A DNA stretch of 64,000 nt from a virus. Taxonomy: Duplodnaviria; Caudoviricetes. Below, piece by piece: positions 8,607-32,365 of the stretch (positions within the stretch are counted from its first letter, which is position 1; each line of letters starts with the position of its first letter). The notes below the pieces were generated by a model, which did no database searches, had not been told where the DNA came from, and saw only the letters and a list, made by a program, of their open reading frames with translations. A program made the position numbers and the translations under genes. The stretch spans positions 32,001 to 96,000 of IMG/VR virus record IMGVR_UViG_3300032233_002382. The stretch is one strand, 5' to 3'.

Positions 8607-9374
8607 CTAAAGACCGTGAGTAATGAGACCGTTCTCAACGGTAAGGATGTCGTGAACTTCATGACCTTCCCGAGTGGCCACGGCCTCCACAGCCATCGTG
8701 AAAGCATCGATTGGTCTTAAACTATTAAATTCATCCGGACTAAACATCTGAGCACTTTCCGGCGGATCGAACGTCTGTCTTGACCCACCACGTCCGGCTG
8801 ACACCACACTGACTCTAGTCTTCATTCCTCCACAGTCGATCGTACCTTCCACGTTGCTCGCACTTTTTTCGCCCAGGAAATCACACCTGTGGAGAGTTAT
8901 AGTGCATGAAGGACCGAGCTCAGTCGGTCCTATATCGACAGGCTTATTTAAGACGTTGACTTGCCCACCGACAGCAGCTACCAATTTCCTAATATCCTTC
9001 AAAACTAATTCTTTCGAGGGACTCTTAGATTTTTCGATCCCCGCCGCGATGCGGCGGAGTTCCTGACTAAGATCTGACGGTTTCATTCGACTGGCCTTTC
9101 TGGGTTTTTGTGAACCCTTGAGAAATGTTCCGACGAGTTTCGCGATCTCACCGAAGTGCTTATCGCTGAGCTTCTGCTTCTCGATTCCGGAAAGGACGCG
9201 ACCGTAGTGGGCGGCCTTCTGCATTATCGAGTCGTCCATCGGGACCGTGACGCCGCCCTTCTCGATCGCTCCGAGCGCCCCACATAACATCGCGTGCTCT
9301 CTGGATTTCGGGTCCTCGGCGGCTTCTGCGACTCGCTTCGGGTCGCTAAGTTCAGATAAGGATGGCTTCGACAT
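8607..9374 (-). CDS. protein with internal copy of the long leader
   Basis: Internal MKPSDLSQELRRIAAGIEKSKSPSKELVLKD at about aa 97. Confidence 0.7.
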   Translation of the reverse strand: MSKPSLSELSDPKRVAEAAEDPKSREHAMLCGALGAIEKGGVTVPMDDSIMQKAAHYGRVLSGIEKQKLSDKHFGEIAKLVGTFLKGSQKPRKASRMKPSDLSQELRRIAAGIEKSKSPSKELVLKDIRKLVAAVGGQVNVLNKPVDIGPTELGPSCTITLHRCDFLGEKSASNVEGTIDCGGMKTRVSVVSAGRGGSRQTFDPPESAQMFSPDEFNSLRPIDAFTMAVEAVATREGHEVHDILTVENGLITHGL

Positions 9375-28878: not shown

Positions 28879-29385
28879 ATGAAACCAACCGACCTATCGT
28901 CAGCTCTACGCCGCATCGCTTCGAAAATCGAAGCTTCAAAATCCCCAAGCCGAGAACTCGTACTCAAAGATTTGAATAGTTTGGTTCGGAAGATGGCTAT
29001 GGATGATGATTCTCAGGATGATAGTAGTCTTCCTACCGGCGTACATGAAGTCATATCTATGCCGAATGCCGAGTTCACTGTCACTATCGATTGTACGAGG
29101 GGGAGTTCTGGAGTCATAGGTGAGTGTACCATCCAGATACAATCTGAGTGGTCTGAAATCCCGTCTGTAGTTTCTGCTGTACAAAGTATTGATAGAGAAA
29201 TCAACAGTGCCACCACTGGTGAATATTGGGCTATGGTACCAGACAACTTGCCCAAGGCGGCTCGAAGCGCCACGGACGGTTGGATAACTGGATACCTTGT
29301 GTGGTGCTTAGAAAATGGGAAATTCGAAGGCCAACCTGATATCGGTCAGTTTATTTTCAAGTTTGACGTTCTTTTCGAAGGCTAA
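28879..29385 (+). CDS. protein with long conserved N-terminal leader
   Basis: MKPTDLSSALRRIASKIEASKSPSRELVLKD; GGAGG SD. Confidence 0.75.
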   Translation: MKPTDLSSALRRIASKIEASKSPSRELVLKDLNSLVRKMAMDDDSQDDSSLPTGVHEVISMPNAEFTVTIDCTRGSSGVIGECTIQIQSEWSEIPSVVSAVQSIDREINSATTGEYWAMVPDNLPKAARSATDGWITGYLVWCLENGKFEGQPDIGQFIFKFDVLFEG

Positions 29386-29463
29386 TAACCGGCTAGATGA
29401 CGATCATGATTCCATTCACGAATCATGAGCCAAACTAAGCGAACCAAAGAATCTTCGATGTAT

Positions 29464-29521
29464 AAAAAGCCGGAGTGATAAGCGCACCAGACTGAAACTG
29501 GGCTTATCACTCCGGCTTTTT
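29464..29521. terminator. 20-bp-stem bidirectional hairpin
   Basis: aaaaagccggagtgataagc / gcttatcactccggcttttt. Confidence 0.8.
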
Positions 29522-29539
29522 CTTTCCAGATCTTCATAT

Positions 29540-29617
29540 TGGCGCTCCTGGAGGGAGTCGAACCCCCGACCGTCGCCTTAGAAGGGCGCTGCTCGTATCC
29601 AGCTGAGCTACAGGAGC
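29540..29617 (-). tRNA. tRNA-Arg (TCT)
   Basis: GCTCCTG/CAGGAGC acceptor, CT-TCT-AA loop, GTTCGA, CCA. Confidence 0.93.
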
Positions 29618-29624
29618 AAATATC

Positions 29625-29792
29625 CCATCAGGTCCGGTCGGCGTTGCAGCGCCGCCCTTCGCATACTGCAATATACCGCGCTTTCTCAAAGGCGCGCCTG
29701 ATGGAAAACGAGTCCCTGCCGGTCAATTCCGGTAGATTCACGGTGTTCAGCACACCGCCATTCTTTTACCGCCCTTAGCGGGCAGTCCAGGG
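29625..29792 (-). ncRNA. candidate structured RNA(s) between tRNA-Lys and tRNA-Arg
   Basis: Two multibranch folds closed by CCCTG/CAGGG and CCATCAGG/CCTGATGG. Confidence 0.4.
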
Positions 29793-29795
29793 AAA

Positions 29796-29871
29796 TGGTG
29801 AGGACGGTGGGGTACGATCCCACAACCAACGGCTTAAAAGGCCATTGCTCTACCAATTGAGCTACGTCCCC
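29796..29871 (-). tRNA. tRNA-Lys (TTT)
   Basis: GGGGACG/CGTCCTC acceptor, CT-TTT-AA, CCA. Confidence 0.92.
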
Positions 29872-29899
29872 GAAATCTGACTGATTTTACATTTAAAGT

Positions 29900-30192
29900 G
29901 TCGGCTCGCCCCATAACCCGACCGAATTGCCGAGTATTTTCCACCCGCTGCCGACCGATCCGCCTGAGGAAAGACGAACCCCCTGTGATTACGATTTTAG
30001 GAGTGGTAAATCGCGTGCGGCTCACCGCAAGCCGTTTTTATTTCTTGTTGGCTCGCCCCGTCGGGATTCCACTCCCGAACACCGCCGCTACCAACTTGTG
30101 CTTCCTGGAAAGGTTTAACAGGAAGCTTTGCCCCTGTGATCCGCTGAGAGGCGGTAGATGAATTCGCCTTCAGCTTGCGCTCACGCTCGCGT
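29900..30192 (-). ncRNA. candidate tandem-duplicated structured ncRNA
   Basis: Two units sharing ATCACAGGGG, GTYGGYAGCGG, GGGGCGAGCCRAC with a covarying stem; motif copy at 30216 upstream. Confidence 0.5.
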
Positions 30193-30222
30193 TTGCTTGA
30201 CGTTCGATTGTCGAGATTTCCG

Positions 30223-30489
30223 CTATCGCTTAGGCTTAATAGTCCCGATGATAGGCGATTCATCCTCGGTAGACCAGAGGGCATTCAGGGCTCTTTCCAG
30301 AGCCCTGGGATCTTCCATGACTTCTGACACGACTGCAACATTAGGGATGTCGAGCAAAAGTTCTTCATTGATTGGACCTGAATAAACGGGCTCGTTTCCA
30401 AGCGTAACGCGGAATTCTTTAGAAGCTGGAATTTTGATCTTCATGGCGACCTCATCTGGAGCGGGAGACGGGATTCGAACCCGCGACAT
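30223..30489 (-). CDS. hypothetical protein (start likely MKIKIP)
   Basis: 5' part of track ORF overlaps tRNA-Gly; GAGG SD before MKIK. Confidence 0.6.
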   Translation of the reverse strand: MSRVRIPSPAPDEVAMKIKIPASKEFRVTLGNEPVYSGPINEELLLDIPNVAVVSEVMEDPRALERALNALWSTEDESPIIGTIKPKR

Positions 30490-30532
30490 TCAGCTTGGAA
30501 GGCTGACGCTCTACCAACTGAGCTACTCCCGC
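30457..30532 (-). tRNA. tRNA-Gly (TCC)
   Basis: GCGGGAG/CTCCCGC, CT-TCC-AA, GTTCGAAT, TCCA. Confidence 0.95.
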
Positions 30533-30533
30533 A

Positions 30534-30620
30534 TGGTGGTTGGGGTTGGATTTGAACCAACGAAAGTCATTGACTGGCTGATTTACAGTCAGCTCCCTTT
30601 GGCCGCTCGGGCACCCAACC
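30534..30620 (-). tRNA. tRNA-Tyr (GTA)
   Basis: GGTTGGG/CCCAACC, CT-GTA-AA, long variable arm, CCA. Confidence 0.94.
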
Positions 30621-31040
30621 TTAAATATCTACTAGACCAGCGTGATGCTCAGCATGACAGTTATGGCAAAGCAAAGCACACTTATCTATTTCTTCTTTTA
30701 TTATTTCCCATCTTCTCGTTCGACCATCGTTCAATCCAAACGATTTTTGGGATTTGTCTTTATGGTGGAAGGTTAGTGCTGCTAACGATTTAGAATACCC
30801 ACAAATTTCACATTTCCCGCCTTTGTATTCTACTGATTTCCTCTTCATCTCTTGTCGATAAGCTGTAACAAGAGCCATATTCTTTTGTTTCTTATCGAAT
30901 CCTGGCAGTCCGGGGCCTGACTTCTGGTTCTTAAAAGGGCTGCACTTGAAACACTTTGTTCGGTTTGAAAGGGAGTGAGTCTTACCTTCAATCGTAATCA
31001 ACTTGGGTATTTCACCACCACAGGATTTGCAGCTCTTCAT
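30621..31040 (-). mobile_element. free-standing HNH (His-Cys) endonuclease in tRNA cluster
   Basis: KGGKCEICGY....LTFHH.D...K.F.........EIDKCALLCHNCHAEHH. Confidence 0.85.
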
Positions 31041-32077: not shown

Positions 32078-32089
32078 AAACCGACCGCG

Positions 32090-32365
32090 CTCACCACTCG
32101 GTTTTATTGGTAACCGAGAAACAACGTGCGCCAAGCCCGCCAGTCGATTTTTAGATGGAATCGACAAACCACTTCGGGCGACGTGGAGTTAAACCACGCA
32201 AGCACTTTTGGATGACCGTACACTTGCAGTACGGACTGCTTATGAGAGCGCCGCTACCCGCCCGAAAGAAAAGGCCCGAAGCTCGTTCCCGCTTTCGCTT
32301 CGGGCAACCCTCACTGCTTTAGGGAAGAGGGCTTTTGGAGGAGCCGACTTTGGGTCGGTTACCCC
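32090..32365 (-). ncRNA. candidate multi-hairpin structured RNA upstream of tRNA-Leu
   Basis: At least 7 stems, including a 9-bp and an 8-bp long-range stem; no convincing ORF. Confidence 0.4.

Follow-up and report, generated by a model that had tools for sequence, protein, structure and literature searches.

Genomic setting of the RNA pair

The two RNA units considered here lie on the minus strand of a 64,000-nucleotide stretch of viral DNA, the whole of which was analysed and is referred to as the window. The window corresponds to bases 32001-96000 of a 307,777-bp IMG/VR virus record (G000), estimated to be 72% complete, from a giant, uncultured phage of 46% GC; no close relative of this phage was found among deposited phages. 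A minus-strand tRNA array occupies 23.6-33.0 kb of the window; its nine tRNA genes are interspersed with small ORFs and a gene for an HNH endonuclease. Within it, unit 1 (30140-30047) and unit 2 (29989-29900) sit between a 73-codon ORF (30444-30223), for which no relatives were found, and a tRNA-Lys(UUU) gene (29871-29796, minus strand) that is recognised by both ARAGORN and Rfam. An earlier note on this DNA had read the pair, from its letters, as homologous and covarying non-coding RNA units with their own promoter.

Layout of the two units

Both units are built from the same parts, namely a shared CAGGGG 5' block, a variable hairpin (P2), a 6-bp stem (P1) and an invariant core, which bears out their homology. 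The sequence blocks quoted for them in the earlier note are all present on the minus strand, ATCACAGGGG at 30140 and 29989, GTYGGYAGCGG at 30095 and 29955, and GGGGCGAGCCRAC at 30059 and 29912. In unit 1, the 5' block AUCACAGGGG (30131-30140) is followed by P2 (30100-30126), which has 8 bp and an 11-nt C/U-rich loop in the minimum free energy (MFE) fold, and by the core (30047-30095), which scores 60.8 bits with the covariance model R1 described below. The core comprises P1 (30095-30090 with 30052-30047), AGCGG (30089-30085), an inserted hairpin P3 (30077-30062) and GGGGCGA (30059-30053). Unit 2 carries the same 5' block (29980-29989), a P2 of 4 bp with a C/U-rich loop (29961-29976) and a core of 54.8 bits (29900-29955) with P1 at 29955-29950 and 29905-29900, AGCGG at 29949-29945, P3 at 29934-29917 and GGGGCGA at 29912-29906. 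P1 thus encloses an invariant AGCG(G)...GGGGCGA core in both units, and CAGGGR is found at the place equivalent to the 5' block in other phages. The spacer between the units (29990-30046, 57 nt) is not conserved. Upstream of unit 1 lies the hairpin GCUGAAGGCG/CGCCUCUCAGC (30174-30143, minus strand; Pa of unit 1), which is predicted in both MFE and centroid folds.

The combination AGCGG-N20-50-GGGGCGAGCC occurs twice in the window, both times in the units, against 0.01 occurrences predicted from shuffled sequence; two matches were obtained in none of 100 shuffles. The closing stem covaries between the units as had been proposed, GUUGGU/GCCAAC in one and GUCGGC/GCCGAC in the other, with the changes compensated. 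The wobble argument for the strand also holds, as plus-strand RNA would have an A-C mismatch in place of the U-G pair 30090/30052 in P1 of unit 1. The predicted folds consist of three simple hairpins, and because the folding z-scores are ordinary (-1.2 for the whole region), stability alone is uninformative here. Two additional contacts were considered and set aside: pairing of the C/U-rich P2 loop with GGAA of the core is possible in units 1 and 2 and is not general across members, and pairing of the 5' block with the core has inconsistent support among them.

Probable promoter copy and transcription

A copy of an ECF-like promoter core, GGAAATC-N12-CGTC, is located at 30199-30221 on the minus strand, with an inferred start site about 7 nt downstream. 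It begins two bases past the stop codon of the 73-aa ORF and sits 55 nt upstream of the units. The core GGAARTC-N12-CGTC is found 12 times in the window where 0.17 would be expected (70-fold enrichment), and about 20 copies with this spacing are present in the whole record, mostly preceding genes. As had been noted, this copy stands in front of no ORF: no conserved ORF follows, and tRNA-Lys begins 28 nt after unit 2. The proposal that the units have their own promoter holds in that the motif core is present at 30221-30199; however, the copy is weak, with an AT-rich spacer where the best copies have a GC-rich one and with no GTGGGCG box downstream, and it is absent from the commoner strain variant. 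Judged by the motif statistic, it is likely but not certain to act as a promoter. The hairpin that follows it, described earlier as strong, is present and folds but lies outside the conserved core. Neither the promoter nor this hairpin is counted as part of the core, because the DNA 5' of 30142 is replaced in the commoner variant.

A terminator scan returned no minus-strand terminator between the units and tRNA-Lys, and the promoter core is enriched, so the units and tRNA-Lys are probably carried on one transcript. The sequencing runs listed as containing this stretch include no RNA run. On the plus strand, a terminator-like hairpin with a T-run is found at 30017-30035, within the variable inter-unit spacer; it could halt antisense transcription.

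Strain variation

Strain contigs from four metagenome runs (freshwater, lagoon and river samples of three studies) were aligned to positions 29300-30900. They fall into two variants that are about 90% identical to the window from 29837 to 30142 in the commoner variant V1 (runs X2, X3 and X5) and to 30192 in the other (run X4). Four compensated stem events were found across these variants. In P1 of unit 1, the pair U30093-A30049 has become C-G in both variants; in P3 of the same unit, A30073-U30066 has become U-A in one of them. G29975-C29962 in P2 of unit 2 is A-U in the other variant, X4, and in X2, X3 and X5 this hairpin has two substitutions and has lost C29973, with four pairs remaining. 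A 1-nt insertion in P2 of unit 1 is confined to the loop. Up to position 30093, the listed differences leave the P1 strands, AGCGG and GGGGCGA untouched apart from the compensated pair. They break no stem pair; up to three further differences in the commoner variant and seven in X4 could fall in conserved blocks, between 30094 and 30192. The core of unit 2 has a single listed difference, at 29943 in the variable part after AGCGG, and its P1, AGCGG and GGGGCGA are unchanged. Other listed changes within the units are in loops, linkers and the variable stretch after AGCGG, the exception being C29985 to U in the 5' block of unit 2 in one variant. The 57-nt spacer (29990-30046), in turn, has 17 substitutions at 14 positions across both variants and loses one base in each V1 run (29998 in X2 and X3, 29995 in X5). 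The differences are thus distributed as a structured RNA predicts.

Larger replacements surround the pair. In V1, the segment 30142-30434, which includes the upstream hairpin, the promoter copy and the 73-codon ORF, is swapped for 354 unrelated bases, and X4 keeps the upstream hairpin. In related strains the tRNA-Arg region (29536-29796) is swapped for 88 other bases. Unit 1, unit 2 and tRNA-Lys are intact as a block in X5, the strain that covers tRNA-Lys, and both flanks are replaced in V1. The tRNA array is a mosaic around this kept block.

The strain contigs also bear on coding potential. Minus-strand ORFs of 95 and 63 codons overlap the region, and a protein reading is excluded because related strains carry single-base, frame-breaking indels inside both ORFs (29973, 29995/29998 and 30115/30118).

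Recurrence in other phages

IMG/VR was scanned with sequence patterns, and the covariance model R1 was then built from the cores. At least about 15 copies in about 10 contigs make up the family. In a complete phage of 85.8 kb and 65% GC (G001), 470 nt separate a full copy (B) from a minimal one (A). The two related phages G002 and G003, with 68% GC, each combine a minimal with a full copy at a distance of about 110 nt, and a single copy is present in a complete 75-kb phage (G004). The core is also found in the fragment G006, and L289 and L228 are weaker candidates carrying it. R1 detects one or two copies in each genome and, in the 308-kb G000 record, nothing beyond the two units. A second search, independent of any RNA pattern, started from the SSB-type protein encoded ahead of the RNA in G001 and G004. 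It yielded five more contigs (L447-L451) with a diverged hairpin at the equivalent place. P1 of L447 is GUCGAG/CUCGGC, that of L448 and L449 is GCCGGG/CCCGGC with the bulged A replaced by C, and L450 and L451 have a GGC/GCC extension in place of the AGCG/CGA element with the G-rich loop kept.

The general plan of the module is a C-rich tract, often the hairpin Pa, CAGGGR, P2, a linker of 2-5 nt, and P1 with a fixed element. This element consists of a bulged A, a G opposite an A, the pairs C-G and G-C, a purine loop N-GG...GGGG and then CGA. The loop of full copies contains P3 as an additional hairpin; minimal copies measure 28-37 nt. The sequence of P2 differs in each phage, yet P2 folds in every full member. 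On the alignment of 15 cores (A5), which includes one coding false positive, P1 is 99% paired and five of its six pairs change on both sides, values reached by none of 500 shuffles and lost when the register is slid. The pattern hits had been selected for complementarity of the outer three P1 pairs. The strain contigs and the members found by synteny are free of this bias, and the inner P1 pairs have changed in a compensated way in the synteny-found L447 and L448. G-U pairs are present in P1, P2 and P3, and every copy is on the strand of the flanking genes. Conservation and covariation at homologous loci, the absence of which was named in the earlier note as grounds for rejecting the units, are thus seen in unrelated phages, where the core recurs with compensated stems.

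The GC-rich carriers have 65-68% GC, and in them the module usually stands behind an SSB-type gene and is often followed by a U-tract. In G003 the pair comes directly after ssb, with a separate strong terminator behind it. In G001, G004 and L447-L451 the module starts just behind the stop codon of a different SSB-type gene, ahead of the DNA polymerase region, and P1 is followed by 5-7 U and then by the ribosome site of the next gene. By direct reading, a U-tract follows seven of 11 minimal copies in other phages and none of the five full copies, window units included.

A number of searches delimit the distribution. BLAST of the region in distant mode against 50,697 phage records gave no match, nor did the full three-block pattern in IMG/VR; the 5' half of the pattern had one match, which is coding and due to chance. 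Pattern scans of metagenome contigs gave, among the matches listed, the weak candidates L127 and L536, the rest being coding or chance matches (LeuRS, ProC and others). A narrow pattern run on GTDB, with one genome per prokaryotic species, returned coding chance matches only and no prophage copy. Three R1 hits (G001:22401, L324:3953 and G005:38009) are false positives inside genes. No relatives were found for the 124-aa ORF after copy B of the 86-kb phage. Just upstream of this copy (L057, about 8725-8745, minus strand) is a third, much reduced look-alike hairpin with a UUGGC/GCCAA stem and a loop ending in GGCGA, which R1 does not report.

Comparison with described RNA families

The earlier note did not recognise the family, and the comparison with Rfam agrees, as no Rfam 15 family matches. 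At gathering thresholds, Rfam 15 reports tRNAs and one wcaG motif elsewhere in the window and nothing at the units. With E-values up to 10, positions 29850-30260 give only noise of 11-13 bits, with no match to the GOLLD, ROOL, YrlA, wcaG, manA, riboswitch or ribozyme models. ARAGORN finds no tRNA-like gene in the region. A search of G000, which is 72% complete, and of G001 for TROVE/Ro60 (PF05731) at E up to 1 gave none, with control genomes responding. The Y-RNA reading is removed because neither phage encodes this protein; there is also no match to YrlA or tRNA models and no tRNA-like domain. A kink-turn, in which tandem G-A and A-G pairs follow a three-nt bulge, requires a nearly invariant A at the second position of the bulged strand, a position that varies among G, C, U and A in the members; the GA-GCC strand of the module resembles the non-bulged strand of Kt-7. 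A CsrA/RsmA sponge, which would present GGA in a hairpin loop of each repeat, is not favoured either: GGA occurs after AGCG(G)N or in the P3 loop in about eight of 15 copies, and the invariant bases are not GGA. The window units are not intrinsic terminators, as P1 runs into A-rich or mixed sequence and the minus strand yielded no terminator site. Membership of a riboswitch class was rejected on the downstream genes, which are unrelated, with a tRNA following in the window.

Gene content shared among carriers

Proteins shared by the giant phage and the GC-rich carriers belong to named families only among cell-wall hydrolases (45-64% identity). These are an SLT-type transglycosylase (61-64% identity) and a VanY-type peptidase with a peptidoglycan-binding domain (45%), encoded at G000:112875-113567 and G000:109549-110346, both outside the window, and at L210:17818-18516, L551:17757-18638 and L556:2452-3243. 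Also shared are a distant PolA, large unnamed proteins of structural size and a Cys-rich zinc-ribbon repeat protein; the distant PolA excepted, they fall into no Pfam or PHROGs family, with one weak PHROGs match. No evident RNA-binding protein is found among the proteins shared with G000, and no shared protein is present in all carriers. The common lysis enzymes suggest a shared host range or gene pool, which would explain movement of the module between such different phages. The Cys-rich protein (L551:4334-5041, plus strand), with relatives in G003 and at G000:8412-8873 (42-44% identity), is common to three RNA carriers. It contains three zinc-ribbon-like repeats of the form C...GC...G-x-C-x-x-H and has no Pfam or PHROGs family.

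Interpretation and alternatives

The module is a real, selected RNA fold, modular in construction. Several uncultured phages that are unrelated to one another carry it on the sense strand, in one or two copies per genome. The reading preferred here, to which a probability of roughly 0.45 is given, is that the two units are copies of an undescribed phage-borne structured RNA module whose purine loop is recognised by a conserved host component. Transcription would start at the ECF-type promoter copy at 30221 and proceed through both units into tRNA-Lys. Processing of the tRNA 5' end by RNase P would then set the 3' end of the RNA and free a molecule of about 300 nt. RNA polymerase, the ribosome, an RNA-binding protein or another conserved component of the host would dock on the invariant purine-rich loop of P1, and in GC-rich phages the hairpin may also end the transcript of the SSB-type gene. 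From the genomes compared, a host partner appears more likely than a phage partner, since the core is conserved across a 20-point difference in GC and no phage protein is common to the carriers. A more specific proposal, in which the RNA acts without any phage protein, either as a tiny self-cleaving ribozyme or by binding host RNA polymerase or ribosome through the AGCG / GG...GGGG / CGA hairpin, and has spread horizontally among unrelated phages, is considered improbable.

The U-tract that follows P1 in half of the members counts against a stable RNA, as it fits a cis-acting terminator equally well. P1 may accordingly be viewed as a terminator or attenuator hairpin whose loop, together with the G-rich and C-rich strands, would set or respond to read-through into the genes downstream. 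By analogy with nut/put sites or protein-controlled attenuators, such a signal would tune transcription into tRNA-Lys in the giant phage. It would account for the 5-7 U directly after P1, followed by a ribosome site and start codon, in L446, L447, L448/L449, L450, L451 and copy A of the 86-kb phage, for the position right behind the SSB-type stop codon and ahead of the DNA polymerase region, and for the one or two copies per genome, comparable to nutL and nutR. In MFE folds of these phages, the CAGGGG strand is paired with the C-rich tract that follows the stop codon, an arrangement that would permit coupling to translation. However, neither window unit has a U-tract or a detectable minus-strand terminator, the tract is missing from all five full copies, and a plain terminator leaves an invariant loop across differing GC unexplained. 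A simple terminator scan did not flag the hairpins of the relatives, which its loop limit of 8 nt excludes anyway. This explanation, the main rival, is judged unlikely, though by no means implausible. It is quite improbable that the module is a small self-cleaving ribozyme, or another RNA-processing element, by which polycistronic phage transcripts (in this phage, the tRNA-array precursor) are cut. Its compact core, in which about 17 nt are conserved while the stems vary and a further hairpin may be inserted, its place between genes of one operon or within a tRNA array, its spread among unrelated phages and the lack of an apparent protein partner would all suit catalysis. Yet searching at E-values up to 10 gave no hit to a known ribozyme model, and the members show no evident conserved site at which cleavage might occur. 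The minimal copies, moreover, are simple hairpins of 28 nt whose loops have 9-10 nt, and a catalytic fold of that size would be very small.

A tandem riboswitch aptamer for a small molecule or ion could present invariant unpaired purines in a stem-enclosed loop, and some copies do lie in 5' leaders of genes and are arranged in tandem here, as in some riboswitches. The genes downstream are nevertheless of unrelated kinds (a tRNA, a small membrane protein, unknown proteins and DNA polymerase), the window copies have no expression platform, the minimal copies offer too little structure for a pocket and no Rfam riboswitch matches, which makes this very improbable. The G-tracts raise the idea of a quadruplex made from the CAGGGG strand and the GG...GGGG loop, in a single unit or across both, or of a stable RNA-DNA hybrid from which replication is primed. 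The idea is in keeping with the fixed positions of short G-runs, two to four in every member, with the frequent pairing of copies and with the location in the replication block of GC-rich phages, beside SSB-type and DNA polymerase genes. Part of each G-run is predicted to pair in stems, though, the stem covariation argues for a hairpin fold, and the window copy is in a tRNA array away from replication genes; the idea has a very slight probability. The overlap with the 95- and 63-codon ORFs and the loose likeness of P3 of unit 1 to a tRNA T-arm could point to the decayed remains of a duplication or of a tRNA, or to a short protein gene, with no functional RNA at all. That is scarcely credible, and it is already contradicted by the strain changes and the P1 alignment: the 1-nt indels would break any frame, the stem changes are compensated, tRNA models do not match and the core recurs in unrelated phages.

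Relation to known systems and significance

The module matches no described RNA family, and its closest analogues, the T4 species 1 and 2 RNAs, GOLLD, ROOL and phage Y-like RNAs, resemble it by context only. The species 1 and species 2 RNAs of T4 (rnaC and rnaD) are small stable RNAs within the phage tRNA cluster and share precursors with tRNAs. They have in common with the module that they are RNAs of a phage tRNA cluster, a likeness of context; the module, unlike them, is also found outside tRNA clusters, behind SSB-type genes, and no model of the T4 RNAs was among the Rfam results. In lambda, the nut sites (boxB), and in HK022 the put sites, are short hairpin RNAs with purine-rich loops, typically two per genome, that act on the transcribing polymerase. 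Their position on the sense strand between genes and their copy number are compatible with those of the module. However, their sequences are unlike that of the module, for which neither a boxA-like element nor an N-like protein was identified, and several module copies are followed by a U-tract. GOLLD and ROOL are structured RNAs frequently located close to tRNA genes and in phages or prophages, and it has been suggested that they are co-transcribed with tRNAs (PMC5737381). They are 580-800 nt long with many junctions, whereas the module measures 30-95 nt, and neither Rfam model matches it. Y RNAs (YrlA), which act with Ro60/Rsr, are like the module in being tandem, small, covarying RNAs in phage tRNA clusters, but the module phages G000 and G001 have no TROVE/Ro60 gene, and the module has no YrlA match and no tRNA-like domain.

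Phage tRNA clusters have repeatedly yielded small structured RNAs, as T4 species 1 and 2, GOLLD, ROOL and the Y-like RNAs illustrate. Among the orphan structured RNAs of phages, the present module is unusually compact and has a sharply conserved recognition hairpin. Conservation of the core between a 46%-GC giant phage and mid-sized phages of 65-68% GC points to a conserved host target. A short module with so sharply defined a recognition element is easy to synthesise and probe, and it offers a tractable entry to the use of RNA rather than protein by phages on host machinery. Should the hairpin prove to control termination or to cleave itself, it would represent a new class of small functional RNA.

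Other features of the tRNA array

The wcaG motif (RF01761) is itself a candidate structured RNA of phages and aquatic metagenomes, and one copy lies 1.9 kb from the units in the same tRNA array (32083-32173, minus strand; 44.4 bits against a gathering score of 42). The units match neither the wcaG model nor any of its blocks. This copy is directly 5' of tRNA-Leu(UAA), with no sugar-metabolism gene behind it. The tRNA-Gly(UCC) gene at 30460-30532 (minus strand) has 94.5% identity to the tRNA-Gly gene found in Virus Rctr197k, whose source is a methane-oxidising enrichment culture. No module copy was found in Virus Rctr197k, and its PolA is the best deposited match for the PolA of the 86-kb RNA-carrying phage. 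Between tRNA-Tyr and tRNA-Asn in the window is an HNH endonuclease-like ORF (30621-31040, minus strand; 139 aa) with a CHNCH motif, which suggests mobile-element traffic in the array. Virus Rctr197k likewise has an HNH gene at the end of its own tRNA array.
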